Source: Lawsonibacter sp.
Lineage (GTDB): Bacteria > Bacillota > Clostridia > Oscillospirales > Oscillospiraceae
Direction of reading: 5' to 3'
Length of the DNA stretch: 49,968 bases
NCBI GenBank assembly: GCA_045604585.1
Contig: JAZUOI010000065.1
Span: 1 to 49,968 of the forward strand
This document shows, piece by piece, positions 10,523 through 27,300 of this stretch (position 1 is its first letter; every line of letters begins with the position of its first letter). Made by a program: the position numbers and the translations under genes. Below the pieces are notes generated by a model, which saw only the letters and a list, made by a program, of their open reading frames with translations, ran no database searches and had not been told where the DNA came from.

Positions 10523-10552
10523 AGTTATTCACTCCTGTTTTCTGTTTCCTGA

Positions 10553-11947: not shown

Positions 11948-12098
11948 GTTATGGCCTCCTATTCTTTTTTTGCTTTTTGGTGTACGCACACACACGTTCA
12001 GCACGTGTGCATTCTCTATAAAAAAGATATCAATTCCGCAGCAAATCGTCCATTGACAAATAGCAACCATGTATGGCAAAATCATAACTGAGGAGGCG

Positions 12099-12902
12099 AT
12101 GTTTGTGCCGTTGACCTATCACTTTTTTCCGTGTGATGAGCTGCCCCTTCCCCGTATCTCTTCCATGGGGTTTGCCACGGATCCCGCCGAAACGAAATAC
12201 GGCCCGGCCCGACGCAATCGATACTTGATCCACTATGTTTTTTCGGGAAAGGGCTACTTTAACGACACCCCCGTAACGCGTGGACAGGGCTTTTTGACTA
12301 CCCCCGGCATTTTTGAGCATTATTATTCGGACAAAGAGGATCCATGGCACTATCTCTGGGTCATCTTCGACGATCCGGCGGCAGCGCCCTATTACCCTCT
12401 GCACAACGCGGATCCGAACACTGGCGTGTTCTCCTATTGCAACGTCAACGTTGTCGAGGATGCGGTGCAGCGGATGCGTTCTGCCCGGGACCGTGGCTTT
12501 TTCTCTTCTGTCCAGCTGACGGAACTGTTCCTGCGGATTTTCAACCGCTGCGTGTGCCCGACCCCAAACAACACCAAAACCAATGAAAAATTCTATGTGG
12601 ACTATTGCATGAACTTCATTCAAACCAGTCTGCATCTGCCCATCACGGTAGATGCTCTGTGTCAGAAGCTGGGGATCTCGCAGACTTATCTGTGCCGCAT
12701 TTTTCAAAAAAATCTTCACTGTTCCCCAAAACAGTATCTGTCCCAATGCCGCCTGCTGCAGGCACAAAAGCTGCTGCTGGAAACGGATCTTTCTATATCG
12801 GACGTTGCCGCCGCGGTGGGCTACAGCGATGTGCTGTCCTTTTCCAGATTCTTTTCCGGAAAACGAAATATGTCTCCCACGGAATACAGAAAGCAAATAT
12901 AA
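12099..12902 (+). CDS. AraC family transcriptional regulator
   Basis: Cupin N-domain (YLIHYVFSGKG) and C-terminal double HTH (VGYSDVLSFSRFF); AGGAGG RBS before ATG 12099. Confidence 0.9.
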   Translation: MFVPLTYHFFPCDELPLPRISSMGFATDPAETKYGPARRNRYLIHYVFSGKGYFNDTPVTRGQGFLTTPGIFEHYYSDKEDPWHYLWVIFDDPAAAPYYPLHNADPNTGVFSYCNVNVVEDAVQRMRSARDRGFFSSVQLTELFLRIFNRCVCPTPNNTKTNEKFYVDYCMNFIQTSLHLPITVDALCQKLGISQTYLCRIFQKNLHCSPKQYLSQCRLLQAQKLLLETDLSISDVAAAVGYSDVLSFSRFFSGKRNMSPTEYRKQI

Positions 12903-12975
12903 TTCTGCGGGTTTCGTGCCCGGGAAGGGGAGGGAAACGCGAAGCCTGATTGGCGTATCGTGACGCAGAACGAAA

Positions 12976-13298
12976 AAAAGACCCGCCACCCGAGTGGGTG
13001 ACAGGATGGGGACCCCGCACGAGCCCAACGAAGTGGGTCGTGTGGGGAAAGGACGAGCGGCAGAATGAATGAACGTCCGCATTTATGCGGATGTGAACGA
13101 TATGCCGCCCGCGAGGACGCGGCACGCCCGAAGGGACGCAGCCGCTTGCGCGTCTGCCGTCCTTGCGGCATAGCCGCTGCGGACTTCGCGGCGCATGGCA
13201 TGCCCCCGGCATGCCATGTGACCGCCGCTCACCCTCTCAGGGTTCGGGCCCCTTCGTGCGAGAAGAACAAAAGACCCGCCACCCGAGTGGGTGACAGG
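12976..13298. repeat. tRNA-linked repeat block
   Basis: 30-bp direct repeat AAAAGACCCGCCACCCGAGTGGGTGACAGG at 12976-13005 and 13269-13298; 17-bp extra copy of tRNA-Arg 3' end at 13121-13137; inverted T-arm copy at 13240-13260. Confidence 0.8.
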
Positions 13299-13300
13299 TC

Positions 13301-13348
13301 TTTTGGCACGCCCGAAGGGACTCGAACCCCCAACTTTCAGAACCGGAA
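13301..13348 (-). repeat. att site: duplicated 3' end of tRNA-Arg(CCG)
   Basis: 48-bp exact match to 25611-25658. Confidence 0.95.
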
Positions 13349-13390
13349 GCAGGGCAGAATGAAACGGCGTATCCATTGCGGCTGTAGTTA

Positions 13391-14497
13391 TCAGCCGCTT
13401 TTTTCTTTCTCGTTTCCACCGGACTTTCCACCAGTCCCGTCCAAAAGGGCAATGCCGGCATGGAGTGTACCGCTGTCCCGGTGGGTATAGATGTTGGCAG
13501 TGGTCTGGATGTCGGAGTGGCCCATCAGCTCCTTGGCCACATTGAGGGGAACGCCGGCGCGCTGCAGGTCGGTGCAGAAGGTGTGCCGCAGGCAGTAGGG
13601 AGTTAGATCCGGGGCGACCTTGCTCTCAGTGATCTTGTTCCGCTCCAGCTTAGCCCCAAGGTAAATGTCCAGATCGCGCTTAAAGCCTGTCCACAGGCGG
13701 CGCATGCTGTTTTCGTTCTGACGGTTTCCAGCCTGCGTGGGAAAGACAGGGGAGAAGGGCCGTCCCTGGGCCTCTCTGAGCCTCCAGGCAAGGTCAGAGT
13801 GTATGGGGATGTCCCGAACCCCTGCGGCCGTCTTGGGGCCTTTAATGGCCGTGGAGCCGCTTTCTTTGGCGGCGTGTATGTGGATCTCGTTGTGGGCGAA
13901 GTCAACATCAGCCCAGGTCAAAGCCGCCGTCTCACCCGGTCTCATGCCGGTGTAGAGTAAAGTCAAGATCCAGAGACCGGAGCGGTGATGCTCTGCCACG
14001 GCCAGGATTGCCTTGCGTTCCTCCTCTGTGATAGATCTCCGGCGTCCCTCTGTGACGGTGGGTAGTTCCAGTGTCTCTGCCGGATCGTAGATGATAAGCC
14101 GGGACTGTCTGGCACGCTTGAACATCTCCTGCAGTACCATGCGGATCTTCTTCACATGGGAGACAGAGCGGCCGGCCTGTTGGTTGAGGATCTTCTGAAG
14201 GTGGGCATCCCTTACGTCTCTCAGCTTCATGTGGCCCACCCTGGGCTTGATGTACTTGGTGTACTTCTCGTCATACATCCCCAGAGATTTGGCGGTCAGG
14301 CCTTTTGGCTCTTTGTAGAGGGTTTTCCACTGTTTGTACCAGGTGTCCACGCTCATGGAGCCAGAGATCGTTTCCTCGCCACGCTTGGCAGCGGCCAGCT
14401 TCTCTGCCAGCTTGGTCATAGCCTCCAACTCGGTCTTGCCGGTGGCCTCGTACTTCTTGCCGTTGTACCGGGCAGTCTTTCGGATATAGTTTGCCAC
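13391..14497 (-). CDS. tyrosine recombinase/integrase
   Basis: YTGMRPGE (R), PKT (K), YCLRHTF, MGHSDIQTTANIY (H,Y); GTG start with AAGGAG RBS; adjacent to att. Confidence 0.95.
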   Translation of the reverse strand: MANYIRKTARYNGKKYEATGKTELEAMTKLAEKLAAAKRGEETISGSMSVDTWYKQWKTLYKEPKGLTAKSLGMYDEKYTKYIKPRVGHMKLRDVRDAHLQKILNQQAGRSVSHVKKIRMVLQEMFKRARQSRLIIYDPAETLELPTVTEGRRRSITEEERKAILAVAEHHRSGLWILTLLYTGMRPGETAALTWADVDFAHNEIHIHAAKESGSTAIKGPKTAAGVRDIPIHSDLAWRLREAQGRPFSPVFPTQAGNRQNENSMRRLWTGFKRDLDIYLGAKLERNKITESKVAPDLTPYCLRHTFCTDLQRAGVPLNVAKELMGHSDIQTTANIYTHRDSGTLHAGIALLDGTGGKSGGNEKEKSG

Positions 14498-14515
14498 GTT
14501 TGTCTCCTTTCGTAT

Positions 14516-14635
14516 TTGACACCGTGGCCCGGAAAGGATATAATAATGGGCGCACTGGTGCCGTATGATTTGATCGTCTGTGGTATTTGTGCATCGCCGC
14601 CTTCGGTGTTGGTAGCACCGGGGGCGGTTTTCTTA
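14516..14635 (+). ncRNA. candidate antisense small RNA unit (promoter plus ~85-nt transcript plus terminator)
   Basis: TTGACA-17-TATAAT (14516-14544) followed by hairpin CCGCCTTCGGTG/CACCGGGGGCGG and T-tract; no ORF between. Confidence 0.55.
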
Positions 14636-14637
14636 TT

Positions 14638-14958
14638 TTAGGCAAATTCGGTATGCAGGGTCTTCCACTTTTTCAGTTTGATGCTCAGCCAAAAACCGTA
14701 GATTCCAAAAGTGATGATTGTCAGAACAAACCACTTGATCCAGTTTCCGAACAGCTGCAGGGCGGTGCCGGTGAACTTCAGTCTCTGGCCGTTGATCACG
14801 GTATGCTTGATTTCCCAATTGTAAATCATGCAGCATGCCCAAGGGTAGCAGATTCCGAGCGTACAGACGGTAACGAGTGCGCCTAAGATTCCCCAACCGA
14901 TTAACTGCAGCAGGCCTCCGTCGAAGTATGATTTTTGGGTTTCTACTTTGATTTCCAT
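14638..14958 (-). CDS. small membrane protein, DUF898/YjgN-like
   Basis: Two internal repeats (FDGGLLQLIGW..TLGI.YPW / FTGTALQLFGNW..TFGIYGFW); GAGGAG RBS. Confidence 0.7.
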   Translation of the reverse strand: MEIKVETQKSYFDGGLLQLIGWGILGALVTVCTLGICYPWACCMIYNWEIKHTVINGQRLKFTGTALQLFGNWIKWFVLTIITFGIYGFWLSIKLKKWKTLHTEFA

Positions 14959-15013
14959 AAATGCATTTCTCCTCTCTATATTTCCGCCTCCGATGCCAGA
15001 GGCGGTTTTTGAT

Positions 15014-15889
15014 TTATTCGTCCACAGGGAGCTTGAGCTGATTGTGCATGTAATTCAGCTCCCGAGCGCCCTTGCTCTCTGAGAGCGTTTTCATCTGATA
15101 GACCACGGTTTCGCGCAACTTTTGAAGGCGTGCTTGCTGAGGAACACCTTGCTCAATGAGGAAGGCATTGAGGTTTTCCAGGTTGGTCAGCACAAGCAGC
15201 TGCTCAATGGTGGCATAGTCCCGCATATTGCCCTTCACGCCGGGATTTTCTGCGCGCCATTGCTTGGCGGTTTTTCCGAACAGCGCTACATTCAGCACAT
15301 CGGCCTCATCGGCATAGACATAACCCTGCTGTGGCTTGGGCAGCTCCGGCAGGATCAGGTTGTCCTTGATGGCATCAGTGTGAATTCGATAGTTCGTGCT
15401 GGCCAGAATGCGCTTGACGTTCCAATCCAGTGCGAGCCGGTGGCTCTCATCACCCTTTAAGCGCTGGTAGTCCTTGATGATATACAGCTTGAACTCCGGG
15501 GAGATCCAGGAGGCGAATTCAAAGGCAATATCCTTGTGTGCCAGAGTGGCGGCGTATCGGCCTTGCTTTGAGGTAATGCCAATGGCCTGCGTATCGTGAA
15601 TCCATTTCTTGGGGGTCATGGCAAAACTGTTTGCACCGGAGGCATCTCTAATTGCCTCGAATTCGATGCAATTAAAATTCGGGTTGTTGAGCTGCTCCCA
15701 TAGCCCTAAGAATTCTATGGTTCCCCGGTTACGCATCCAGTTCTGAATGACATATCCCGGTAGTTCGGGATTATGGTACTTGGCAATATCGGTCAGCGAA
15801 ATATAGTCGTCTTCGCTGCCAACTGTGGTGACAACGGCAATTTCTACACCGCTTGCGTGGATGATACTCTCTACTTTTTTAGCACTCAT
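15014..15889 (-). CDS. KilA-N domain DNA-binding protein
   Basis: DYISLTDIAK, NWMRNRGTIEFLGLWE, AHKDIAFEFASWISPEF; ATG 15889 after AAGGAG. Confidence 0.85.
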   Translation of the reverse strand: MSAKKVESIIHASGVEIAVVTTVGSEDDYISLTDIAKYHNPELPGYVIQNWMRNRGTIEFLGLWEQLNNPNFNCIEFEAIRDASGANSFAMTPKKWIHDTQAIGITSKQGRYAATLAHKDIAFEFASWISPEFKLYIIKDYQRLKGDESHRLALDWNVKRILASTNYRIHTDAIKDNLILPELPKPQQGYVYADEADVLNVALFGKTAKQWRAENPGVKGNMRDYATIEQLLVLTNLENLNAFLIEQGVPQQARLQKLRETVVYQMKTLSESKGARELNYMHNQLKLPVDE

Positions 15890-15943
15890 ATGCGGCACTC
15901 CTTTCTGCCCTGGGCTTGCGCCTGGGGCGTTTTTTGATGGGTC

Positions 15944-16543
15944 TTAGTTATTCAGCGCATCGGGATACACCACAGATTCAATGACATCATTAGATGCGGC
16001 GTCGATAATCTGAATATCGCAGTGAGCCTCCACGTTGGCAAACATCTGATAGATTGCAGCTTGCAGGTACACACCGAACGGGACAAACGCAGCAGCGAAC
16101 CCGGCGGCATCATATCCTGCCTTATCAACACTGATTTTGACGGAAGTAAAGTCCTTCGAATAGTCGATTGCGGTAATGTAGGGGGTATCCTCGGCCTTGA
16201 CCATACCGTCAAAGGCATCGGTGACCGTCTTGGCTGTTTCGGCCATGATTTCCTTATGCTTGGCCTTGGACATGGTCACTTTGATGGAGCCATCCTCGTT
16301 GACAACGGCCTTCTTAAAGCCCTGCTCTGCGGCATAGGCTTCAGGGTCAAAGGTAGACATATCCGTACCCTCAAAGAAAGACGCAGGCATCGTAATCTCC
16401 ACAGAGAGCAGGCTTTCGTCCACCTCAACTCCGCCACCGGAACTGGAAGCGGAACTTTGGGCGTTGTTGCCGCCACCGCACCCAGACAGGGACAGAAGCA
16501 ACATGGTGCTGGCGAGAGTGATAGAGATTGCGCGTTTGAACAT
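15944..16543 (-). CDS. lipoprotein of unknown function
   Basis: Signal peptide with lipobox LSGC then Gly/Ser linker. Confidence 0.8.
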   Translation of the reverse strand: MFKRAISITLASTMLLLSLSGCGGGNNAQSSASSSGGGVEVDESLLSVEITMPASFFEGTDMSTFDPEAYAAEQGFKKAVVNEDGSIKVTMSKAKHKEIMAETAKTVTDAFDGMVKAEDTPYITAIDYSKDFTSVKISVDKAGYDAAGFAAAFVPFGVYLQAAIYQMFANVEAHCDIQIIDAASNDVIESVVYPDALNN

Positions 16544-16588
16544 AATAGTATCCTCCTTTGCCCTGGCTCACGCCTGGGGCGTTTTTAT

Positions 16589-17038
16589 TTAGCTATTCAG
16601 TGCCAGATAGTTGTTATAAGCCAGCTCCTGAAGCATCTTGTACAGTCCCTGAATGTTATATTTTTTCGGGAACTCATATTTTTTGCTGCCGAGCTGCAGA
16701 TTGTGTGCCTTCATATTGGGCGTGATGATGTAATCAATGGTCAATTCGCTATCATCCAGGCCAAAGCCGGCGGTTTCGGCGGTAACATGGTAGACCGACC
16801 TAAGGTTAATTGAATCTACGCGCATTTTCTGGCCGGTGGCACCCTGCTTGTCAAAACTCATGATGCGCTTGTCGGTGATAATGACCACGTCACGGACCAG
16901 CTTGAAGCCGACTTGGATGGATTCGCCACTCATCAGATACATTCCGAATTCCTTTTCGAGAGCTGCTGGATCAACCTCGCTCATGTTGCCGAGCAATCCT
17001 TGAATGACGCTTCCGCCTAATTTGTCCATAATTCCCAT
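16589..17038 (-). CDS. bacterial PH-domain protein (bPH_1/YvbH-like)
   Basis: FKLVRDVVIITDKRIMSFDKQGATGQK, ETAGFGLDDSEL. Confidence 0.8.
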   Translation of the reverse strand: MGIMDKLGGSVIQGLLGNMSEVDPAALEKEFGMYLMSGESIQVGFKLVRDVVIITDKRIMSFDKQGATGQKMRVDSINLRSVYHVTAETAGFGLDDSELTIDYIITPNMKAHNLQLGSKKYEFPKKYNIQGLYKMLQELAYNNYLALNS

Positions 17039-17074
17039 AATATTTTCCTCCTTGTCCGGCTCCGGCCGGATTTT

Positions 17075-17503
17075 TTATTTGTCTTCGGTCTTCCGGTAGT
17101 CTGGGATCTTCGTCAGCTCCTCAACGCGTTCTACGGCCACTTGCTGGCCTTTGGGGTTGAGCTCGTCAAATGAAGCGAGAAGTTTAGATTGAGCGGAGTC
17201 GTTGCTTCGGTGTACTTCGTGGTTTTCGTCTTCAAGGATACGATCAAACCAAGGAAACAAGCTTTGGATGCCGTTGCTTACTTGGGCTCCCGACATACCA
17301 GCCAACCGGGCAAGACTCTGTAGTTCGTCTATGTCCACTTGCAGCACTAAGCACAAGCGAGCGAAAATCTCATCCCTTGGGATTCGCTGGTTGCTTTCAT
17401 ATCGACTAATTGCAGTTTTTGTTGTATAGACAGCAGCAGCAAGAGCTTCTTGCGTCATTCCTGCCCTTTTTCTTGCAGCTTTAAGCTGCTCGCCGAAGGT
17501 CAT
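17075..17503 (-). CDS. Xre/cI-like repressor
   Basis: FGEQLKAARKRAGMTQEALA...ISRYE HTH; C-terminal LNPKGQQVAVERVEEL; ATG 17503 with GAGGTG RBS. Confidence 0.88.
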   Translation of the reverse strand: MTFGEQLKAARKRAGMTQEALAAAVYTTKTAISRYESNQRIPRDEIFARLCLVLQVDIDELQSLARLAGMSGAQVSNGIQSLFPWFDRILEDENHEVHRSNDSAQSKLLASFDELNPKGQQVAVERVEELTKIPDYRKTEDK

Positions 17504-17524
17504 AATGCTCACCTCACAATGACT

Positions 17525-17620
17525 ATTATAGCCGATGTTACCACAAAGTCAACTTTTTTTCAAAAACCTGTTGACAAAAAGTTGCCGATATGGTTACAAT
17601 TGTGTTGCCGATGCGGTAAC
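17525..17620. promoter_or_regulatory. divergent switch promoters with three 17-bp operator-like palindromes
   Basis: Minus TTGACT-16-TATAAT; plus TTGACA-18-TACAAT; GTTACC-N5-GTCAAC (17537), GTTGCC-N5-GGTTAC (17581), GTTGCC-N5-GGTAAC (17604). Confidence 0.7.
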
Positions 17621-17639
17621 ACCGGGAGGAGGTGAAGAA

Positions 17640-17831
17640 GTGAGAATTAACCGAGAGCGCTTTGCGGTTGCCATGGTGCGGCACGATTTGAACGGCGAAA
17701 AACTGGCTTCGTTGTCTGGTGTGTCCCGGTACACCATCACGGCTGTCAAGAATGGCAAGAGCTGCAGCAAAGAGACAGCGGACAAGCTGGCGGCAGTCTT
17801 GGGCCGCAATATCATTGAAAAGGAGGATTGA
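17640..17831 (+). CDS. Cro-like HTH protein
   Basis: GTG start after GGAGGAGG; LASLSGVSRYTITAVKNG HTH; divergent from repressor. Confidence 0.8.
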   Translation: MRINRERFAVAMVRHDLNGEKLASLSGVSRYTITAVKNGKSCSKETADKLAAVLGRNIIEKED

Positions 17832-17834
17832 GCT

Positions 17835-18482
17835 TTGAGCAAAGTAATTGATTTGACAGGAATGCGGTTCGGTAGATTAACCGTGCTCGGTCGGGCAGAA
17901 AACAGGGATCGAAAGAGAGCTATGTGGCTTTGCAAGTGTGATTGTGGGGACGAAAAGATTGTATGGGGGTATTCATTACGGTCGGGGCGCACGGTTTCGT
18001 GCGGCTGCTACAACCGCGACAAATGCATTCGACAGCACACCACACACGGGCTGTCCTCCACACGAATTTATAATATCTGGACCGGAATGAAGGACAGGTG
18101 TATCAACAAATCCAATCCAAGGTGGAGGCATTACGGCGAATCTGGCGTTGAGGTGTGCAATGAGTGGAGGGAAGATTTTAAGGCGTTCTATGATTGGGCC
18201 GTATCTCACGGCTACCGGGACGATTTAACCATTGAGCGGATTGACGTCAGAAAGGGTTATAGTCCCGATAATTGCCGATGGGCGACATGGGCAGAACAGG
18301 CCGGAAACAAAAATAACAGCACGGCTGTTACTATCAATGGCGAAACACACACGGTTGCGGAATGGGCCAGAATTGCTGGCGTTTCGTATAATTATCTTTA
18401 CAAAAAATATGCGTCTTTCGCACGCGTAGCCTGTCCGGCGCTGGGCTGTGACCCGGCCGACATTCTGGAAGGAGGAAACTAA
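17835..18482 (+). CDS. phage HNH-like (beta-beta-alpha-metal) endonuclease family protein
   Basis: DLTGMRFGRLTV, WLCKCDCG, SCGC, LTIERID..YSPDNCRWAT. Confidence 0.7.
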   Translation: MSKVIDLTGMRFGRLTVLGRAENRDRKRAMWLCKCDCGDEKIVWGYSLRSGRTVSCGCYNRDKCIRQHTTHGLSSTRIYNIWTGMKDRCINKSNPRWRHYGESGVEVCNEWREDFKAFYDWAVSHGYRDDLTIERIDVRKGYSPDNCRWATWAEQAGNKNNSTAVTINGETHTVAEWARIAGVSYNYLYKKYASFARVACPALGCDPADILEGGN

Positions 18483-18713
18483 ATGGCAGCACTGTACGCA
18501 GAAATCCGCGAGAAGGAAGAGGAGATCTTCCGGCGGAACAAGAACAAGGCTACGCTATCCCGCGCCGCTCTGGCCAGGGAGCTGGGAGCCGGTGAGATCG
18601 TGGCTCAGAAGTGGGCGGAGGAGCGGGGGATAGGCATTCCTATCGGTGCTCGTGTCCGCTACGAGGTCCGGCAGGTGGCAAAGCACATCGTTCAAGAAAG
18701 GGGAATGTACTGA
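18483..18713 (+). CDS. small DNA-binding (wHTH/Xis-like) protein
   Basis: LSRAALARELG..RVRYEVRQVA; GGAGG RBS. Confidence 0.55.
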   Translation: MAALYAEIREKEEEIFRRNKNKATLSRAALARELGAGEIVAQKWAEERGIGIPIGARVRYEVRQVAKHIVQERGMY

Positions 18714-19000
18714 TGAAAACGGAATGGAACATCCAGGCAAGGGCGTTTCCTGTTACTGTCCACGACCACAGTACCGGGCAGGAGCGGGAGGAGCAGATCG
18801 TGCTGACAAAGGAGCAGCTGCAGGCTGCCCAAATCGTCGGCCAGAGCAGCAAGGAGCTGATTGGCCGTCTGTGTGAGCGTGCCGGCCTGACTGTGCTGGA
18901 GATTGGCAAACCGGAAAAGCGGGAGATCAGCCTGAACATGGAGGAACTGTTTAAGTTCCACGGTATCGCCATGGCAGGGAAGCGGGAGGCGGTCATGTGA
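18713..19000 (+). CDS. hypothetical protein
   Basis: MKTEWNIQ start overlapping upstream stop (TGATG); stop overlaps helicase start. Confidence 0.65.
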   Translation: MKTEWNIQARAFPVTVHDHSTGQEREEQIVLTKEQLQAAQIVGQSSKELIGRLCERAGLTVLEIGKPEKREISLNMEELFKFHGIAMAGKREAVM

Positions 19001-20430
19001 GCGAGAATGTTTCCATGAAACCCGCCGATTTTTCCGATGCCGGAAACGCCGCTGTATTTGTTCGGGAGTATCGAGATGATCTTATCTACACCGATTCCAT
19101 GGGCTGGCTCTGCTGGGACGGAAAGCGGTGGGAGCGCAACGAGCACAAGGCGCTGGAACTGGCCGAAGAGTTCTCACTGAAAATGCTGGAGGAGGCAAGC
19201 TCCTTAAACCGTGAGGCAGCGCACACTCTGGCGGATCTGACCGCAGATAAGGCGGAGGGAGAAAAGGATAACGAAGCATTGGAGCAGGCAAAGCGGGAAC
19301 AAAAGAGTGCTAAGGCATACCTCCAGCACGCTATGCTGACCCGGCGGGCCGCGCGGATCCGCGCCGTTCTCGATCTGGCAAGGCCATATATGGTCATACC
19401 CGGTAGCATGATGGACGCTGACCCGTGGGATCTAAATACACAGGCCGGGATCATCAACCTTGTTACCGGCGATTGGCGCATGAATGAGCGCGCCGCATAC
19501 TGCACGAAAATTACCAGTGCCGCCCGGAGTACAGAGGGTGCGGAGCTGTGGGAGCAATTTCTTGACACCATTACCTGTGAGGATAACAGCTTAAAAGGTT
19601 TCCTCCAACTGGTAATCGGAATGGCGATGTTCGGGAAGGTTTACCACGAAGGAGTCACTTTTGCCGTAGGTGACGGAAAAAATGGAAAAAGCACATTTTT
19701 CAATGCCGTTGGCAAGGTTTTGGGCGACTACACTGGGTACATAAACATTGATGTGATTACTACCAAGGGAGCGAACGACAAGGCGGCTCTGTCCACCCTG
19801 CGCGGCAAGCGGCTGGTGATCGCCGGAGAGCTGGAAGAAGGGCGGCGGCTATCTTCCGCCACCATTAAGAAGATCGCCAGCACAGACCCCTTCCAGGTGG
19901 AGGAAAAGTACAAGCAGCCGGAAACGGTAGTCCCGTCCCATACCTTGTGCCTGTTCACAAACCACTTGCCCCACGTCAGCGCCACGGATGATGGCACATG
20001 GCGGCGCATCATTGTGATACCCTTTAACGCTACGATCCCCAAGAACGAGGCAATTCAGAATTACGCCGATTATCTTGTTGAGAAAACTGGTGGCGCGATC
20101 CTTGCCTGGGCGGTAGAGGGGGCGCAGAACTTTGCTCGAAATAAATTCCATTTGACCATCCCGGACGCTGTGGCGGAGATCACGGATGCTTACCGGAGCC
20201 GGGAGAACTGGCTGACCAACTTTATCGATGACCGCTGTATTGTCGAAAAGGGCGCACGCATTGGTGCTCGGGAGCTGTATACAGCTTATAAGAATTGGGC
20301 GGCGGAGATGGGGGAGTATGTCCGTAGCGAAAAGGATTTTTCACACGAGATGGAGCGAAGCGGAGTGAAAAAGCTGTCATCACGGGGATCGAATTATTAT
20401 ATCGACCTTCGGTTATTGCTCTACTGTTGA
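18997..20430 (+). CDS. P4/D5-family primase-helicase C-terminal type protein (D5_N plus SF3 helicase)
   Basis: SDAGNA, WLCWDGKRW, Walker A GDGKNGKST, TNHLP, DDGTWRRI. Confidence 0.9.
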   Translation: MSENVSMKPADFSDAGNAAVFVREYRDDLIYTDSMGWLCWDGKRWERNEHKALELAEEFSLKMLEEASSLNREAAHTLADLTADKAEGEKDNEALEQAKREQKSAKAYLQHAMLTRRAARIRAVLDLARPYMVIPGSMMDADPWDLNTQAGIINLVTGDWRMNERAAYCTKITSAARSTEGAELWEQFLDTITCEDNSLKGFLQLVIGMAMFGKVYHEGVTFAVGDGKNGKSTFFNAVGKVLGDYTGYINIDVITTKGANDKAALSTLRGKRLVIAGELEEGRRLSSATIKKIASTDPFQVEEKYKQPETVVPSHTLCLFTNHLPHVSATDDGTWRRIIVIPFNATIPKNEAIQNYADYLVEKTGGAILAWAVEGAQNFARNKFHLTIPDAVAEITDAYRSRENWLTNFIDDRCIVEKGARIGARELYTAYKNWAAEMGEYVRSEKDFSHEMERSGVKKLSSRGSNYYIDLRLLLYC

Positions 20431-20515
20431 GTCTGTGGAGGCAAAAACCTAAACTTTTCCTAATACACTTTTATTTTGCTTTTGTGAAAAGTTATAGTAC
20501 AGGCTCCACAGACTC
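20429..20515. other. putative replication origin of the element
   Basis: Perfect 12-bp inverted repeat GAGTCTGTGGAG/CTCCACAGACTC flanking an AT-rich core with nested AACTTTTC/GAAAAGTT, directly after helicase gene. Confidence 0.6.
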
Positions 20516-20535
20516 CGCACCAACCCCGCAAACCA

Positions 20536-20808
20536 TTGCAAACGCTGAAAGGAGTTAAAACAATAAGGCACGATGAAATCACGCAGATTATCCCTGCACC
20601 TGCAGGTATGTATGCAAAACACGCAGGAGAGTACAACGGAGAAAAGTATGAATGCTATGTTCCGGTTGTCTGTCTTGCTCTTATGGAGAATCAGCTTGGC
20701 TCTCGCTATATCCTGCCCATGAGCATAGATGTGGATGGGTATATCGAGGAAGCTGGTAGGACTGATGACTTTAACGGTATCGTCTGGAGGGAGTACCCCA
20801 ATGAATAA
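20536..20808 (+). CDS. hypothetical protein (start uncertain)
   Basis: ORF in operon; AAGGAG sits before an in-frame ATA rather than ATG. Confidence 0.5.
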   Translation: MQTLKGVKTIRHDEITQIIPAPAGMYAKHAGEYNGEKYECYVPVVCLALMENQLGSRYILPMSIDVDGYIEEAGRTDDFNGIVWREYPNE

Positions 20809-20980
20809 CAAAATCTGTCCCCTGCTGTCTGCCTGTGACGCAGAAAGCAATCACTATTGCGAAGAAGGGCGCTGTGCTTGGTGGATACCGCCGCTCGGTC
20901 CCCGCAGTGAAGGCCGCTGTGCGAGCCAGATGTTGGGCGCGGCCATGCCGGAGCTGATAAAGGCGGTGAATGAGATTTGA
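20801..20980 (+). CDS. small Cys-rich hypothetical protein
   Basis: MNNKICPLL..C..C..CAWW; GGAGG RBS; overlaps neighbours. Confidence 0.6.
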   Translation: MNNKICPLLSACDAESNHYCEEGRCAWWIPPLGPRSEGRCASQMLGAAMPELIKAVNEI

Positions 20981-21162
20981 GTTACTACCGATCCTGTCCC
21001 ATCTGCGGGGCGAACCTGGACCCCGGCGAAGCCTGCGACTGCCGGGACGAAAAAACCGCCGCCGATGCTACGAACATCGACGACGGCAAGGCGGAACGGG
21101 ATTTGACAGCCCCTAATTCCGCCTCCAGTGTAAACGAAAACAAGGAGGAAAGTCAAGTATGA
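20977..21162 (+). CDS. small zinc-ribbon phage-type protein
   Basis: YYRSCPICGANLDPGEACDC. Confidence 0.7.
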   Translation: MSYYRSCPICGANLDPGEACDCRDEKTAADATNIDDGKAERDLTAPNSASSVNENKEESQV

Positions 21163-21416
21163 ATGAGCCGAATATTCAGCCTATCAATATGGATGGCGTG
21201 TGGTTTGAATTGCGGGGTCTGGTTGCTGTTCTTGAGATGATTAGCGTTGGTCTGAGCGATGATTGCGCACAGATTGACGGCAACGAGGAGTATCCGAAAG
21301 ATAGTTGGAGGCATATTTGCGTTGCCAATAACGCTAAGAATGTATACAGCCCCGCTCTGGATCACGTTCACGGTCAACTTCACGATCTCCTTGCCAGAGT
21401 GGGCGTATCAAAATGA
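21159..21416 (+). CDS. hypothetical protein
   Basis: AAGGAGG RBS, ATGA overlaps at both ends. Confidence 0.65.
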   Translation: MNEPNIQPINMDGVWFELRGLVAVLEMISVGLSDDCAQIDGNEEYPKDSWRHICVANNAKNVYSPALDHVHGQLHDLLARVGVSK

Positions 21417-21595
21417 AAGTCACGATTACGTATTTGCCCGAGGAGGAGCGAGAGGCCAGAATGGCAAAAGCCTTTATTCGCGAACTGTGCGACAATGTGA
21501 GATGCAAAGAACGCGACACCCACCCACCATATAAACACATCTACTTAGCGACCAAGAAACCCGGAAAATGTACAGATACAGAGGAAAATCATTGA
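21413..21595 (+). CDS. hypothetical protein
   Basis: ATGA overlap with upstream gene; MKVTITYLPEEE..PYKHIYL. Confidence 0.6.
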   Translation: MKVTITYLPEEEREARMAKAFIRELCDNVRCKERDTHPPYKHIYLATKKPGKCTDTEENH

Positions 21596-21720
21596 CTATA
21601 ACCTGTGTATGTGGTACACTTGTTCTAAAGATATAGGCATGAGTACCGCCCGCAAGGGTTAGCCGTCAACAGACAGGCATGGGAAACAGTTTTGACACTG
21701 TTCTCATGCCTGTTTTCTTT
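21592..21720 (+). promoter_or_regulatory. promoter plus structured leader/terminator (candidate sRNA or attenuator)
   Basis: TTGACT-17-TACACT with TG extension; hairpin ACAGGCATGGGAAACAG/CTGTTCTCATGCCTGT plus T-tract. Confidence 0.55.
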
Positions 21721-21804
21721 TCCCTGGGGCGGGGGCTTACTCCTCTCCTCCGCTCCGGGGAATCTCGTAACAAAAGAAGGAGTAAATAAAGGAGGAATAA
21801 AATT

Positions 21805-22482
21805 ATGAATCAGATCATCGCTGACAACCGGCACAAGATTGACACTGCCTGCCAGCTCTGCTTTTATGCGTTGGATAAGTACCACAAAGCCTGCCAGACG
21901 TTCAACGAGGAAAAGCGGAGGATCGCCGCTACTCCCTACATCCAGCAGGAACAGGAGCGCATGGTGAACAAGGCCGCAGAAACCCTGAGCAATGCCGCGA
22001 ACGGTCATTATGCAGAAATCAAGAAAGACCTGGGCATGATCCGGGAAGCGGCCAATGAGATGGAGGGGGTGCTGGACATTGGGGAGGATCTTCAGAACAC
22101 CCTTGCTGTGGTCAAGTCCCTGGGCAAAGATGCCCCCAATGAGATCCTGTGGAAGCTGGTGGAACAGTTCAAGGGCCAGCGTCAGGCACTCATCATCCTG
22201 AAGACCGCCTACGAGGCCGCCGGCGTCAATGCTGAGCATTATTTCAAAGGGACGATCTTCTCCGCGTCCAGCGTCCTGGACGACCTGGATGAACAGGCAT
22301 ACCGCATCGTGGTTCAGCCCGGAGATAATATTGCTGTGGCTGTAAGCTTTGGCGACCAGCTGGAGAAGCTTGCGGAATCCCTGGGCGTTCAGCCAACAAA
22401 GAAATTCAGAGACATCGTCGACACTTCTGATGCCTTTAATGCCCAGCTCCTGGCAGCTATGGGGCTGGGTACAGCTGATTGA
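21805..22482 (+). CDS. hypothetical alpha-helical protein
   Basis: 225-aa ORF, strong AAGGAGG RBS, coiled-coil-like composition. Confidence 0.8.
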   Translation: MNQIIADNRHKIDTACQLCFYALDKYHKACQTFNEEKRRIAATPYIQQEQERMVNKAAETLSNAANGHYAEIKKDLGMIREAANEMEGVLDIGEDLQNTLAVVKSLGKDAPNEILWKLVEQFKGQRQALIILKTAYEAAGVNAEHYFKGTIFSASSVLDDLDEQAYRIVVQPGDNIAVAVSFGDQLEKLAESLGVQPTKKFRDIVDTSDAFNAQLLAAMGLGTAD

Positions 22483-22564
22483 TTTTGTGGGCGCGTGGGA
22501 CATATCCTGCGCGCCCCTACTTTGCATTATATTTAGGTGATTTTTCTATATAAGGGGGAGTCAT

Positions 22565-23221
22565 ATGCAGCGGACACATGGGACGGTGGAGAACTGCGAG
22601 CGCATAGACTCCTTTGAAGCCATGCGCTGCTCAGAGGGCTGTGACGCAGGGATTTCTGCCGGTGATCTGTGGCTTGATTGCGATCATTATGTTCTCCAGC
22701 GGGGAGAGGATAAAAGAGAGATCGTGCATCTGTACTATCCCGGCAGCAGATGGAATCAGGAGCTGAGACTTGTCCGGATCGACAGCGGTTTTGGCGGCAC
22801 AAGGGCCTATTGGCTTTGTCCGGCGTGTGGGGAGCGGTTTCGTTATCTGTACTTCAACCGGCGCTTTCTCTGCCGCAAGTGCGCGGAGTTGAACTATAAG
22901 TGCCAGCAGGAAACACAGAACAGCCAGAGTGATCTCCGAAAGGGAATGAAGATAGCAGGGGAGCGTTTGGGGTGGTTTTCTCTCCGGCCTGTCTCTCGCA
23001 CGGAATTTGTGGGCCTGTTCCCGGCAAAGCCAAAGGGGATGCACTGGAAAACATATGTAAAGCACCTTGCGCGGCTTAGGAAATACCAGGATCAGTGCGG
23101 TGAAAAAGACACGCACACATTGCTGAAGGGGCTAAAATCCCTTGGGGGCTTTGGGTGGGTTCTTGACGGAATTACAGATTGTATGGTGGGAGGCTCACAT
23201 GGACTGGAAGACAACGACTAA
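22565..23221 (+). CDS. zinc-finger hypothetical protein
   Basis: GFGGTRAYWLCPAC, FLCRKC, KPKGMHWKTY; GGGGAG RBS. Confidence 0.7.
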   Translation: MQRTHGTVENCERIDSFEAMRCSEGCDAGISAGDLWLDCDHYVLQRGEDKREIVHLYYPGSRWNQELRLVRIDSGFGGTRAYWLCPACGERFRYLYFNRRFLCRKCAELNYKCQQETQNSQSDLRKGMKIAGERLGWFSLRPVSRTEFVGLFPAKPKGMHWKTYVKHLARLRKYQDQCGEKDTHTLLKGLKSLGGFGWVLDGITDCMVGGSHGLEDND

Positions 23222-23849
23222 CGAGGAATTGGCGCTGTTAATCCAAGCTGGGGAACGGGACAGGATACCGCAGCTATGGGAGCAGGTCCGCCGCTTTATC
23301 GAACGGCAGTCGAGACGGTGGGTTTACCATCTGGAAGGGAAGGGTGGCGTCACGGCGGAAGATCTGTCGCAGGCCGGTTTCTTTGCGCTCCTGCGAGCCG
23401 TAGAAAGCTTTGACCCAGCACAAGGATATAAGTTGCTCGCTTACCTCAAACTCCCGTTGAAGACGGAATTTAACCGCGCCACGGGGTATAAGACGAAACG
23501 TGACCGTCTGGACCCGCTTCAGGACTACATCAGTGCAGATGTGCTGGTGGGGGAGGAAGAGGACACGCCCTTGCTGGATCTGTTGGCTGACCCTGCGGCG
23601 GAACTGGGCTATGCTGAGATAGAGGAGAAAGATCGCAGGGCGGCAGTTCAAGAGTTGCTTTCGTGCCTTAGTGAGTCGCAGAGGAGCGTAATTCGGGCAA
23701 GGTATTGGTATGAACTCACCTTTGAGGAAACAGCCAAGTCGCTTGGCGTGGATAAAAAGGAGGCAGTAAAGTTGGAGCAGCAGGCCTTGCGCACGCTGCG
23801 CCATCCTGCGAACAGGGAGAAACTAATGAGATGTGGGTACTCCGCTTGA
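23199..23849 (+). CDS. sigma-70 family alternative sigma factor
   Basis: TNEELA, region 2 EDLSQAGFFALLRAVESFDP, region 4 LTFEETAKSLGV..EQQALRTLR; GGAGG RBS. Confidence 0.85.
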   Translation: MDWKTTTNEELALLIQAGERDRIPQLWEQVRRFIERQSRRWVYHLEGKGGVTAEDLSQAGFFALLRAVESFDPAQGYKLLAYLKLPLKTEFNRATGYKTKRDRLDPLQDYISADVLVGEEEDTPLLDLLADPAAELGYAEIEEKDRRAAVQELLSCLSESQRSVIRARYWYELTFEETAKSLGVDKKEAVKLEQQALRTLRHPANREKLMRCGYSA

Positions 23850-23870
23850 CCTGTTCCACTGCAGCGCAAA

Positions 23871-24473
23871 TTGGAACGTGCCATCCGCACCCAGAAACGC
23901 CGCATATTGACCGCCGAGGCAACTGGGGATAAAGAGACGCTTTCGGTCGCGCAAACGCGCTTGCAGGTTCTCAGGCAGGAATACAGCCAGTTTTCTAAGG
24001 TTGCTGGACTGCGGACGGAAAACGAGCGTGCGCAAGTGGCTGGGTTTGGGCGAAAACAAGCAGCAAAAGCAAGCGCTTCAGTTAAATCCATTGAAAAGCA
24101 GAGACATTTGGAGTATAATAGAAAGCAAGAAGAAACCCGCGTTCTGATCTTCTCGGACAAAACAGTCAAGACGATCAACACTGGGCATCAGAACAAACAC
24201 ATCAAGACCTCGAAAGGGTATATCCCTGGTCGCAGCTATATTTACGGCGATGTGGAAACAGCCCAGCGTCTGGTGGATAAATACCATGGGACGGGGCAGC
24301 TCGTTTTCAACAGAAAGGGCGAATGGGCCAAAAGAGAGACGGTTACACACGACAGTGCAATCGGTGTCTGTGTTGACCCGTCCACTCTGGCCGAAATGGT
24401 GACCCGGAGATTTACCATCCATTATGGCAAGAACGGATCGCACATAGTACCTGCGAAGGAGTTGGAAGCATGA
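23871..24473 (+). CDS. N-terminally truncated phage minor-capsid protein with polymorphic toxin type 50 (Ntox50) domain
   Basis: ERAIR..KR..EYSQFSKVAGLR..ERAQV resembles minor capsid C-terminus; QNKHI..GRSY..LVDKYHGTG..FTIHYGKNGSHIVP resembles Ntox50; no clear RBS. Confidence 0.7.
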   Translation: MERAIRTQKRRILTAEATGDKETLSVAQTRLQVLRQEYSQFSKVAGLRTENERAQVAGFGRKQAAKASASVKSIEKQRHLEYNRKQEETRVLIFSDKTVKTINTGHQNKHIKTSKGYIPGRSYIYGDVETAQRLVDKYHGTGQLVFNRKGEWAKRETVTHDSAIGVCVDPSTLAEMVTRRFTIHYGKNGSHIVPAKELEA

Positions 24474-24679
24474 ATTTGAGAGAAAGCGCAAATCTGAATT
24501 GGTGCAAGCTCGTTCGCGTAACAATGACGGACGGAGAACTGCAGATGGGAAAGCTGGTTGGTTATACATCCGCATTGGACAACGAGCCTGACCCCGAGAG
24601 CATCACGCTCGAAAAGGAGCGCGGAATGCTCGTAGAGCTGTATGCCGATGAGATTGCCGCCGTTGTGACAGATGGTTGA
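24470..24679 (+). CDS. putative immunity protein for the Ntox50 toxin
   Basis: Small acidic ORF, ATGA overlap with toxin stop, AAGGAG RBS; YTSALDNEPDPESI. Confidence 0.6.
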   Translation: MNLRESANLNWCKLVRVTMTDGELQMGKLVGYTSALDNEPDPESITLEKERGMLVELYADEIAAVVTDG

Positions 24680-24691
24680 TGGGGGTGCGCC

Positions 24692-24814
24692 ATGACAGAG
24701 GCCACCATCAAGGCCATCGAAGCCATCCTTGCCAAGGACGACCGGGTTGAACTGATCCCCACCCGGGACGGCGTCAAGGTCGTCCGCATCAAGAGGGAGC
24801 CGATAAAAACTTAA
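24692..24814 (+). CDS. 40-aa phage-type hypothetical protein
   Basis: MTEATIKAIEAILAKDDRVELIPTRDGVKVVRIKREPIKT after GGGGGTG; below ORF-track cutoff. Confidence 0.55.
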   Translation: MTEATIKAIEAILAKDDRVELIPTRDGVKVVRIKREPIKT

Positions 24815-24854
24815 TATGTACCTCGCCCTAAGTGGTGGGCGGGAAGAGCTAAGT

Positions 24855-24897
24855 GGAGCTGACCATCTGGAATTTCCGGATAGTTGGCTCCTTTTTT
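24855..24897 (+). terminator. intrinsic terminator ending rightward operon
   Basis: GGAGCTGAC..GTTGGCTCC stem followed by T7. Confidence 0.6.
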
Positions 24898-24975
24898 GTT
24901 GATTTCAGGCCGTTGCCTGTTTTCATACCATCTTTGACCGGTCCATGTCGAGAAACTGGGCGCCGGTGACGCTCC

Positions 24976-25239
24976 TCACTTCGGTGTAACGCCGTGGTAT
25001 TCGATGCCAAAGGCTTCACACAACTGTCGGTCATTGAAATAACGTTGTGCCAGGACACGCACCTCCGCAACTGTAAACGTACTTGGCTCCTTGATGCGGC
25101 GGTAATAGGTTCGCTGGCAGCCAGGGAATATCTGAGCTGTGTCGATGTCCTTTTCGCCTCTCATGGTCTGACCGAAGCGTAGTGCTGCCAAAAGCGCCCG
25201 ATCCTGCCTCTGGGCAGCGGTTAAAGTTACTCTGGGCAT
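24976..25239 (-). CDS. small HTH-like phage protein
   Basis: MPRVTL..RTYYRRIKEPSTFTVAEVR; AAGGAG RBS. Confidence 0.65.
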   Translation of the reverse strand: MPRVTLTAAQRQDRALLAALRFGQTMRGEKDIDTAQIFPGCQRTYYRRIKEPSTFTVAEVRVLAQRYFNDRQLCEAFGIEYHGVTPK

Positions 25240-25243
25240 GAGG

Positions 25244-25462
25244 TTATCTCCTTTCCTTTTTTGTAGCGGCCCTTCCGACTTCTGCATTCATTTCAAACTC
25301 CACCAGGTCAGACAGCCGGAATACATACGGTCCATTACGTTGGCCACCGAGATTCAGTGCGGTCATTCGTCCTTGGCGCACCCAGTGCTGCACGGTGCCT
25401 GTAGCCACTCGATAGCGCTTGGCCACTTCTTCGGTTGTATACACAGGTTCGTTGAAGTTCAT
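25244..25462 (-). CDS. excisionase-like (MerR/HTH_17) protein
   Basis: YTTEEVAKRYRVATGTVQHWVRQGRM..YVFRLSDL; AAGGAGG RBS; next to att. Confidence 0.8.
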   Translation of the reverse strand: MNFNEPVYTTEEVAKRYRVATGTVQHWVRQGRMTALNLGGQRNGPYVFRLSDLVEFEMNAEVGRAATKKERR

Positions 25463-25613
25463 GGTGTCACCTCCTTCCAAGATTTTTTCCACCACCATTT
25501 CCACCACCGAAACGTCCGAAACAGGGCAAAAACGGAATTGTTTTCCATGCTGGCAGACGCAACAAAAAACCCCGGAAGCCTTATAAATCAAGGTTTCCGA
25601 GGTTTTTCTGTTT

Positions 25614-25689
25614 TGGCACGCCCGAAGGGACTCGAACCCCCAACTTTCAGAACCGGAATCTGACGCTCTATCCATTGAACTACGGACGC
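25614..25689 (-). tRNA. tRNA-Arg(CCG)
   Basis: GCGTCCG..CGGGCGT-GCCA acceptor, anticodon arm TCAGA-TTCCGGT-TCTGA, GGTTCGAGTCC; promoter TTTACT-17-TATAAT at 25743-25715. Confidence 0.96.
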
Positions 25690-25771
25690 ATGGGGCGCTC
25701 ATCAGCGCCAAGTCATTATAGCAGGAACGAGAAGAAAAGTAAAGAGGAAAAAACGCGCTTTTTTTGACACC

Positions 25772-25984
25772 TCAAAGGGCGAAATCCTCCGCTGTCAATT
25801 TGGAGAAATCCGCTTTGGTAGGGCGGGGTGGGGTACGGCGGAGGGGATCGTATTTGAATGCGGAGCAGTGAGAGCCCGCATCCATCACACCTTTTTTGGG
25901 GCAGGCCACCTGCTCCTGTGACAGGGGACGGCTGTGGGCACAGTAGGCACAGCGCGGCTCGATCTTGCGTTGAAACAAGGACAT
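25772..25984 (-). CDS. small Cys-rich hypothetical protein
   Basis: CAYC..C..C..FKYDPLRR; GGAGG RBS. Confidence 0.7.
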   Translation of the reverse strand: MSLFQRKIEPRCAYCAHSRPLSQEQVACPKKGVMDAGSHCSAFKYDPLRRTPPRPTKADFSKLTAEDFAL

Positions 25985-26025
25985 AACGGTCCCTCCCTTG
26001 TGGTTTTGGGATGTTTGTGCCCCTA

Positions 26026-27213
26026 TTATACCTGATTTCTTCCTGCTTTTCCACCACTTTTTTTCTTTCTTCGGTCAACGTAAACGGTCAGCGAAAAAAA
26101 CAGCAGGAATAACAGCCACGCACACACCATGCACAGGACGAACACGTGGGGGAACTCCAGTCCGGACAGCCCGGACACCTCCTGCGCCAGATAACCGGAC
26201 ACCGGCTTGGGGAGTGGGAACAGGTGGGTCAGGATCCCGGTGAACAGGGCACACAGCGCCCCATGGACGGCCTTTCCGGCCAGATAGGTGCCGGAGGACA
26301 AATCGCTGTCGGACAAAAAAGAAAGCACCTGACAATGCACGCTCAAGCCCGCCCAGCCCAGCATAAAGGCGGCCATGGACACGTGAGCCGGAGTACCGGA
26401 AGACAGGGAGGTGACCCCCGAGGTCATTTCCAGCAGACCGGACAGAAGCAGCCGTGCCTGTCGTTCGTCCACACCCATGGGGTGCAGCAGCAGGGTCAGC
26501 AGCCGGGCGGGGAGGGTCAGCGCGCCGGACAGGGAAAGCAGCCGCAGCACCACGGCAAAGAGCACCACGAAGGCGCAGATGCTCAATACGGAGCTGACGG
26601 CCTGTGCCACAGCGGTGGTAAACGCGCCGGAAAAACGAACAGTGCGAACGGTAGTGCGGCCGGAGGGGCGCTGGTGCTCCGCCTCCTGCCCACCGTAAAA
26701 ACGAAACAGCACACCCACGCACAGGGAGGCGGCCATGTGTACCAGATACAGCAGCAATCCCACCCGGCTGCTGGAAAATACCCCCGCGCCCACCACGCCC
26801 AGAATGAAAGCGGGGCCGGAGTTGTTGCAGAAGGCCAGCAGACGCTGGGTCTGAACGCGGGAAAGCTGTCCGGAGCGGTACAGGCTGATGGCGGTACGCG
26901 CACCCACGGGGTAGCCGCCTACAAAGCCAAGCACCAGTGCGCAGGCACCCGCTCCGTCCACTCGGAACAGGGGGCGCATCACGCCCTCCAACAGTCGTCC
27001 CAGCTGTTGCGCCATACCCAGTTCTACCGCCAGTGCGGACAGCACGAAGAAGGGGAACAGGGAGGGGACGATCACATTGGCGCACAGGGCAAGTCCGTCC
27101 CGGGCAGCCTGCAGGGCGCTTTGGGGGAAGAGCAGCAGGGCGGCGGCGGCACACAGCAGTGCGGCTCCCAGCAGCATATCTCGATACTTTGTGCAGACTA
27201 GTGTTTTGAGCAA
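26026..27213 (-). CDS. ylbJ: sporulation integral membrane protein YlbJ
   Basis: VPSLFPF, GYPVGA, FCNNSGPAFILG, GLLEMTSG, GLSVHCQ. Confidence 0.88.
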   Translation of the reverse strand: MLKTLVCTKYRDMLLGAALLCAAAALLLFPQSALQAARDGLALCANVIVPSLFPFFVLSALAVELGMAQQLGRLLEGVMRPLFRVDGAGACALVLGFVGGYPVGARTAISLYRSGQLSRVQTQRLLAFCNNSGPAFILGVVGAGVFSSSRVGLLLYLVHMAASLCVGVLFRFYGGQEAEHQRPSGRTTVRTVRFSGAFTTAVAQAVSSVLSICAFVVLFAVVLRLLSLSGALTLPARLLTLLLHPMGVDERQARLLLSGLLEMTSGVTSLSSGTPAHVSMAAFMLGWAGLSVHCQVLSFLSDSDLSSGTYLAGKAVHGALCALFTGILTHLFPLPKPVSGYLAQEVSGLSGLEFPHVFVLCMVCAWLLFLLFFSLTVYVDRRKKKSGGKAGRNQV

Positions 27214-27300
27214 GCCGATCCCCCCTCGGAGGATATCTATGCGCCGGCGGGCAAAAAAAGCACGCAGCCTTTGGCTGCGTGCTTTTGAGGGGATATGTAC

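Follow-up and report, generated by a model that had tools for sequence, protein, structure and literature searches.

A probable PICI-like phage satellite with a captured candidate MuF immunity unit in a Lawsonibacter tRNA-Arg gene

What kind of element has an integrase, a repressor switch and a replication gene of phage type, yet no recognisable gene with which to package itself? The question is raised by a 12.3-kb insertion in a tRNA-Arg(CCG) gene of Lawsonibacter sp. (Oscillospiraceae), found at positions 13301-25658 of the 49,968-nucleotide stretch of DNA analysed here, which we call the window (GenBank assembly GCA_045604585.1, contig JAZUOI010000065.1). A first-pass annotation made from the sequence alone had taken it for a phage satellite. 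The element is almost certainly a mobile integrative element and quite probably one that is moved in phage particles. On balance, we favour a phage satellite resembling the phage-inducible chromosomal islands (PICIs), carrying a captured promoter-immunity unit and packaged by a temperate phage of MuF2 type.

The boundaries are defined by exact 48-bp direct repeats, 12,310 bp apart, which comprise the last 45 nt of tRNA-Arg(CCG), starting in the anticodon loop, and 3 further nt. In 20 base-shuffled copies of window positions 10000-30000 the longest exact repeat is 16 bp. The features of the insertion site are as follows.

13301-13348, no strand: left att repeat, which holds the displaced tRNA-Arg 3' end and adjoins the integrase (exact repeat; empty site in genome G008)
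25611-25658, no strand: right att repeat, overlapping the intact tRNA (exact repeat)
25614-25689, minus strand: tRNA-Arg(CCG), the integration target (tRNA search)

In G008, a genome of the same genus, the site is empty: the intact tRNA directly joins the sequence that here lies outside the left repeat, and the genes of the element's right flank stand upstream of that tRNA. The GC content is 52.5% in the element and 57.9% and 60.1% in its flanks. The att repeats, size and tRNA target given by the first-pass annotation are thus confirmed by the exact repeat, the tRNA call and the empty site. The host flank to the left (12972-13298) has features of its own, a 34-bp repeat pair and, at 13121-13137, a 17-bp copy of the tRNA 3' end; sequence similar to window 12972-13298 also flanks the empty site of G008.

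Twenty-five open reading frames (ORFs) were scanned with Pfam, PHROGs and NCBIfam. Profiles confirm a tyrosine integrase, a divergent helix-turn-helix (HTH) pair, an HNH nuclease, a D5/P4-type helicase, a sigma-70 factor, an HTH_17 excisionase-like gene and an Ntox50 domain, so that the integrase, cI/cro switch, helicase, Xis-like gene and sigma factor named at first sight are all matched; the origin named with the helicase is a candidate by AT-rich composition only. Capsid, portal, terminase, tail and lysis genes have no match among the 25 ORFs in these collections. The small terminase subunit (TerS) has none either, save for a marginal HTH match in the excisionase-like gene (E 0.0099, no passing stretch); a divergent TerS may escape these profiles. 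No profile in the element matches a capsid morphogenesis protein, for which the helical protein described below is a candidate by its position alone. The earlier view that neither TerS nor capsid-remodelling genes are recognisable fits the results from the three collections. That no intact virion or packaging gene is present agrees with the same scans, with the qualification that a broken one is there, since the supposed toxin gene represents the 3' portion of one for a MuF2 minor head protein.

This broken gene belongs to a 1.1-kb block whose donor, represented by the IMG/VR records L067/L068, is a siphophage-type provirus. The block spans the last 40% of the muf gene, the 69-aa gene downstream of it, an ORF of 40 aa and leader sequence up to a point some 50 bp short of the scaffold gene.

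23860-24965, plus strand: captured block of phage head-region DNA, with 94% identity to IMG/VR L067/L068 (alignment)
23871-24473, plus strand: headless MuF2-Ntox50 stub, starting at about codon 313 of the 516-codon phage gene (profiles, alignment)
24091-24119, plus strand: sigma-70 promoter, 11/12 consensus positions, within the stub and facing the immunity gene (consensus scan)
24470-24679, plus strand: intact 69-aa immunity-position gene with a strong Shine-Dalgarno site (PHROG 1865; profile)
24692-24814, plus strand: 40-aa phage ORF (alignment)
24819-24866, plus strand: gut-2 RNA (Rfam RF02990), 48.3 bits, gathering threshold 39.8 (Rfam)

The stub matches positions 324-364 of 366 in Phage_min_cap2 and 325-512 of 564 in PHROG 581. 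The block stands between the stop codon of the sigma gene and a backbone gene shared with G089, a sister element at the same site, which has other genes in this slot (a HicAB-like toxin-antitoxin pair, labelled by eye, at L035:10123-10776). A contig from X3, an independent sequencing run, spans its right junction. A 7.8-kb contig of X2, with another replication gene, passes through the sigma gene and 30 letters into the block, missing our bridging rule by one, and an X1 contig leaves the sigma gene into other DNA at 23856. The capture is therefore no assembly artefact; it is common to strains about 5% apart and is not universal. The whole block was not found in the 111 other genomes of the genus, which gave 4 short matches.

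Is the toxin still made? Shine-Dalgarno pairing is -3.5 kcal/mol or weaker at all seven in-frame starts checked in the stub, against -8.1 to -13.2 kcal/mol in 13 of 13 control genes, the immunity gene included, and the first in-frame start after the internal promoter lies inside the toxin domain. The stub is probably not translated, as judged from these sequence signals. The toxin/immunity pair of the first-pass annotation is accordingly kept in part: the Ntox50 domain and the small downstream gene are there, as a phage fragment whose toxin half is probably silent. One could suppose instead that a translated stub forms a toxin-antitoxin or abortive-infection module together with the immunity protein, as the reading frame stays open for 200 codons, keeps the Ntox50 domain intact, directly follows the sigma gene and starts with TTG where the phage has CTG. 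The translation signals just described speak against this, and the stub, which differs from the phage by 2 non-synonymous and 15 synonymous changes, may owe its conservation to the period before the capture; we give the idea the very smallest weight.

The internal promoter is found at the same place, codons 383-391, in all six Ntox50-type muf genes scanned, three of which are nearly identical, and in none of three other muf genes or 15 neighbouring long genes. In L068-L073 it is a near-consensus sigma-70 promoter facing the immunity gene. Such a promoter would explain how immunity is expressed in lysogens while the late genes are off. A headless stub with no ribosome-binding site, an internal promoter and an intact immunity gene together make the block, from its sequence, a likely orphan immunity unit.

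The remaining genes of the element, in order along the window, are these.

13391-14497, minus strand: tyrosine integrase, 368 aa (profiles)
14516-14633, plus strand: predicted short RNA divergent from int, with a 12/12 sigma-70 promoter and a terminator (consensus scan)
14638-14958, minus strand: DUF898-like membrane protein, accessory, not in sister G089 (profile)
15014-15898, minus strand: KilA-N protein, which matches the PADLOC candidate defence model PDC-S22 (profiles)
15944-16543, minus strand: putative lipoprotein, accessory, no family match (Pfam, PHROGs, NCBIfam)
16589-17038, minus strand: bacterial PH-domain protein, accessory (profile)
17075-17512, minus strand: cI/Stl-like repressor, HTH_3 (profiles)
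17525-17600, no strand: inverted repeat and divergent 11/12 promoters between cI and cro (repeat and consensus scan)
17640-17831, plus strand: Cro-like HTH protein (profile)
17835-18482, plus strand: HNH endonuclease, likely a homing insertion, not in sister G089 (profile)
18483-18713, plus strand: 76-aa protein, a possible second excisionase (position)
18713-19000, plus strand: 95-aa protein, family marker (occurrence in genus genomes)
18997-20430, plus strand: D5/P4-family helicase lacking the primase domain (profiles)
20444-20499, no strand: candidate origin, an AT-rich stretch after the helicase (composition only)
20536-21595, plus strand: five small ORFs, including a Zn-ribbon ORF (20977-21162) and a family-wide 60-aa ORF (21413-21595) (family comparison)
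21050-21156, minus strand: predicted short RNA antisense to the Zn-ribbon ORF, with promoter and terminator (consensus scan)
21805-22482, plus strand: 225-aa all-helical protein of a large unannotated family (homologues, fold)
22565-23221, plus strand: CxxC Zn-finger protein, 21 homologues (motifs)
23199-23849, plus strand: sigma-70-family factor of a clade typical of these elements (profiles)
24976-25239, minus strand: 87-aa ORF, 93-94% identical in sister G089 (comparison)
25244-25462, minus strand: HTH_17 excisionase-like gene (profiles)

The helicase covers positions 267-747 of 756 in PHROG 1883, with the primase domain absent, and scores above cut-off with TIGR01613 (P4-family primase C-terminal domain); within the element no other 56-bp stretch is as AT-rich as 20444-20499. 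The excisionase-like gene and the integrase lie at opposite ends, so that circularisation would place the former just downstream of int on the same strand. The Zn-finger protein keeps its name on account of the CxxC motifs; its FYVE match is weak and below the Pfam cut-off, and no family was found for it. The terminators of the two predicted regulatory RNAs are related hairpins without an Rfam match, and the motifs recur at 17 other loci (14516-14633) and 13 other loci (21050-21156). They were rejected as family markers: the hairpins also occur in a full provirus, and the covariation is that expected of any terminator.

How might such an element live? The cI-like repressor would keep it silent; on derepression, the cro operon would lead to excision at the att core, and the D5-type helicase would replicate the circle, the host or the helper supplying the primase. 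The sigma factor that the element encodes would turn on the late slot (helical protein and Zn-finger protein), and a temperate siphophage of the MuF2 head type would package the element with the helper's terminase, needed because this member has none. What would favour retention of the captured block is the immunity gene, which, read from the internal promoter, would shield the carrier from the phage's MuF-Ntox50 toxin. Jamet et al., in the accessible part of their paper, hypothesise that MuF toxins are delivered with the phage DNA (PMC5576092), and if so an orphan immunity would be useful. That the unit is in fact expressed and protective is, in our estimate, an even chance.

The sister element in G089 is 12,818 bp long and occupies the same site with the identical 48-bp att. 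Its ends are 90% identical to those of our element in DNA and its end genes 93-99% identical; the integrase shows 98% identity (72 synonymous and 8 non-synonymous codon differences) and the 76-aa protein 99%. The middle differs, with another helicase and other cargo, namely TerS, a prohead protease and a portal. A third occupant of the same tRNA, in G025, is a full prophage of 44 kb. Its integrase is 81-82% identical to that of the element and its 76-aa homologue 38%. The likeness of the integrases indicates that the integration module is common to phages, and that both kinds of element compete for one site. The element might accordingly be a deletion remnant of a full prophage that has lost most of its late region, as the shared attB, integrase and 76-aa homologue, the phage head DNA within it, and sigma homologues at 28-35% in larger phage contigs would allow. 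G025, however, lacks the 95-aa, helical and sigma markers, and no early or replication gene DNA is common to the element and the 27.9-kb provirus record to which the block matches; outside the block only two 45-50-bp hairpins match. The sister, alike at both ends and in size, differs in its middle, and among the 50,697 phage records of a GenBank phage collection the markers match nothing, or only faecal records of 6.3-11.5 kb. The first-pass annotation had itself named the left part of a deleted prophage as the outcome that would overturn it; the sister, the relatives and the provirus argue otherwise. The element is probably not a prophage remnant, and we hold that origin to be quite improbable.

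Is the element alone of its kind? A search for syntenic relatives, suggested at first pass, found 13 att-flanked elements with a related backbone. The 95-aa gene occurs in 10 of 111 other genomes of the genus, the sigma clade in 19 of 400 genomes of the family (E 1e-38) and the helical profile in 13 of the 400, several weakly. From 52 related genomic stretches (29 + 23), the 14 with an exact repeat at a tRNA 3' end were tallied, the others being cut by contig ends or stretch length, flanks, or without such a repeat. The tally comprises the 13 small elements, of 5.6-16.2 kb, and the G025 prophage, and with the present element takes in 10 tRNA types. The constant backbone is integrase, repressor, replication and sigma genes, into which phage late genes (terminase, capsid, portal, tape measure) are swapped; the replication gene itself varies (D5, VirE-type, primase-polymerase, DnaC/DnaD, DnaB). 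Among 11 delimited sigma-bearing relatives, seven have at least one virion or packaging gene, four have none and none has a full set; the cargo is a tape measure in four, a capsid in two and TerS-portal-protease in one. Undelimited relatives add the large terminase subunit (TerL), neck, MuF, head decoration, baseplate hub and endolysin. Since relatives often carry TerS, capsid or tape measure, their lack is a trait of this member and not of the family.

Of 167 sigma matches in IMG/VR, the best 80 are spread over 79 contigs with a median length of 11,496 bp, 66 of them at most 20 kb and nine above 25 kb. Seven sigma-marked contigs of 8.3-10.2 kb are whole, with terminal repeats. In L117, one of these, the 95-aa and 60-aa markers accompany a scaffold, a capsid and a tape measure. 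L113 and L140 lack a whole tRNA and have a single 45-bp tRNA 3' end next to the integrase, the arrangement expected of attP circles; the other five terminal-repeat contigs gave no tRNA match. The 95-aa protein itself had no match in the IMG/VR scan, and tblastn in the phage collection found no link to streptococcal satellite proteins. A scaffold-capsid pair with a capsid of the elements' own group, and with neither portal nor terminase, is seen in L033, L036, L041, L081, L085, L087, L102, L117, L170 and L179; these small elements and circles are candidate capsid-redirecting satellites. A second arrangement, a small HTH gene, TerL and a helical-family protein without capsid and sometimes with a tape measure, recurs in L119, L122, L125, L126, L127, L132, L159, L016 and L030. 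L079 (G433:C2) has two sigma-TerS modules in tandem, 6.7 kb apart.

These relatives bear on a further explanation, in which the element is an island that can excise and may replicate itself, its packaging cargo now gone; general transduction or free-DNA uptake would be its only means of transfer, and the block would be neutral debris left by recombination with a co-infecting phage. No packaging gene is found here or recognised in four of the 11 sigma-bearing relatives, several relatives hold fragments (capsid pieces in G006, G009 and L079, a MuF piece in G024), and satellites of S. thermophilus are moved by natural competence according to the available portion of PMC13376191. Debris would hardly be expected to fall between two backbone genes as a complete promoter-immunity unit, or to show the same junctions in other runs at about 95% identity. 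The capsid cargo of the relatives is a long-diverged group of its own, with 53-99% identity between element-borne capsids and 25-30% to the capsid of the donor phage, so that at least some cargo has been long kept. We regard this explanation as unlikely. Carriage by gene transfer agent (GTA)-like particles of the host, in place of a helper phage, deserves mention because contig C113 of the element's own genome (G000:C113:33-12835) has a phage-like head-tail cluster and a terminase among housekeeping genes; this terminase is 53% identical to that of the donor phage, the other C113 labels having been assigned by eye. GTA-like packaging is reported for Oscillospiraceae in the accessible text of PMC12946183, where the fragments given for named taxa are of 4.6-8.9 kb, shorter than 12.3 kb; the captured DNA, moreover, comes from a prophage and not from the C113 cluster. 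The chance of such carriage seems slim.

The 225-aa helical protein, placed in the late slot, belongs to a large family that lacks an annotation. It has 58 close homologues besides itself, nearly all of 223-226 aa, its family forms 228 clusters at 50% identity, and it has a paralogous counterpart, also helical, in the corresponding slot (hhalign 95.7%, E 1e-8). Together the two occur at 41 loci (2,261 called proteins scanned), often beside TerL or tape measure. Both are predicted as long hairpin-and-bundle folds (pLDDT 86.5 and 78.1), and with either one the same three uncharacterised viral proteins come out near the top of the fold search, none of them reaching E 0.001. Pfam and NCBIfam gave no match, every PHROG family matched at most 1 of 105 or 1 of 11 members, and a PDB sequence search gave nothing below E 0.002. 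In PDB and BFVD no structure reached E 0.001 with Foldseek, and the matches from VIA-align were all generic helical bundles, the best being designed proteins (Z 13.4 and 11.2); the Atlas neighbours are all hypothetical. The label given at first pass, an unknown helical protein, is thereby borne out. Its position suggests a role in virion assembly.

Several observations weigh against a helper-packaged satellite with a working immunity unit. No terminase, capsid-remodelling gene, or pac or cos feature is identified in the element, and its integrase and 76-aa gene are shared with the 44-kb G025 prophage. All promoters are consensus matches, and the immunity function of the 69-aa protein is assigned from its position; its gene differs from the phage copy by 5 synonymous and 5 non-synonymous changes, which gives no hint of purifying selection. 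The element's own genome, 80% complete, yielded no MuF-type prophage. Among the joints listed for contigs of sequencing runs aligned to the element (shares 0.05-0.11), none is an attP or empty-site joint; the parts of the element left uncovered by these contigs prove nothing about excision. The circles belong to relatives and not to this element, IMG/VR is silent on encapsidation and many of its contigs are fragments. Weaker sigma homologues in HK97 head clusters and fuller phages blur the family boundary.

If the element is a satellite whose captured unit makes its carriers immune, it would be an example of satellites countering a polymorphic toxin borne by phages, and would test in nature whether MuF toxins are delivered on infection. 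The block points to a candidate helper type and allows a direct test of the idea, still a hypothesis, that MuF toxins enter the cell together with phage DNA. A wider proposal, that gut Clostridia harbour undescribed satellites with their own sigma factor, a dedicated helical family, a helper-stocked late slot and a pirated MuF immunity unit, promoter included, which makes carriers immune to the virion-delivered toxin, we put forward tentatively. Such satellites are poorly catalogued: current models would skip this element, with three of five core genes, and would reject relatives with portal or tail genes. The 95-aa protein, the helical family and the sigma clade are three markers by which they can be found.

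The closest likeness is to Gram-positive, SaPI-like PICIs (PMC10085698), which have the same size and att-flanked integration, no tail, holin or portal, and the same order of integrase, divergent regulators, replication and accessory region. Unlike them, the element has no TerS or known capsid-remodelling gene and carries its own sigma-70 factor and the unannotated helical family. The SatelliteFinder definition has five core components, and elements with three are Type C and were left out of that analysis (PMC10085698). Three are present here, namely integrase, primase-replicase and a regulation module (the divergent cI-like/cro-like pair and an HTH_17/MerR-like gene); as TerS was not found, we do not count the element among the PICIs, despite the similar layout. 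Its relatives depart further from that model, carrying portal, TerL, capsid and tape measure, some of which are forbidden genes there. Capsid-forming cf-PICIs, as far as the available text of PMC10085698 describes them, have the same left arm; G089 has TerS, protease and portal and other relatives scaffold and capsid, whereas our element lacks capsid, portal and TerL and no delimited relative has the full head set. Streptococcal satellite prophages and StCIs (PMC13376191; PMC6813308, each in part) are likewise elements of 7-20 kb with att repeats, integrase, regulation and replication genes and no structural genes; a captured toxin-immunity block and a swappable late-gene slot do not appear in the accessible portions of those descriptions. 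EPIPs of Mycolicibacterium (PMC12822802) are satellites of about 11 kb with a tape-measure gene, as in many of the relatives; they belong to another phylum and have a serine integrase, TerS and head-tail genes, and the present element has no tape measure. The marine VEIMEs share only general features with it, on the available part of PMC9618062.

Compared with a complete prophage, the element has no matched head, tail or lysis module. With the MuF polymorphic toxins of temperate phages, as described in the accessible part of PMC5576092, it shares the MuF2 C-terminus, the Ntox50 tip and the immunity-position gene downstream of the toxin domain; it differs in that the stub lacks the N-terminal MuF domain, does not directly follow a portal gene and lies on a satellite-like element, where only the immunity half looks usable. 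A literature search, with most subscription journals outside its reach, found no description of this element family, no satellite with a MuF immunity gene and no promoter inside muf; a mouse-gut preprint (10.64898/2026.07.08.737213), in its available part, mentions unclassified satellite-like elements in related families. The undescribed family suggested by the first-pass annotation thus has real members that are absent from the literature searched, and what they represent is less than a wholly new class: the element fits a PICI-like variant.

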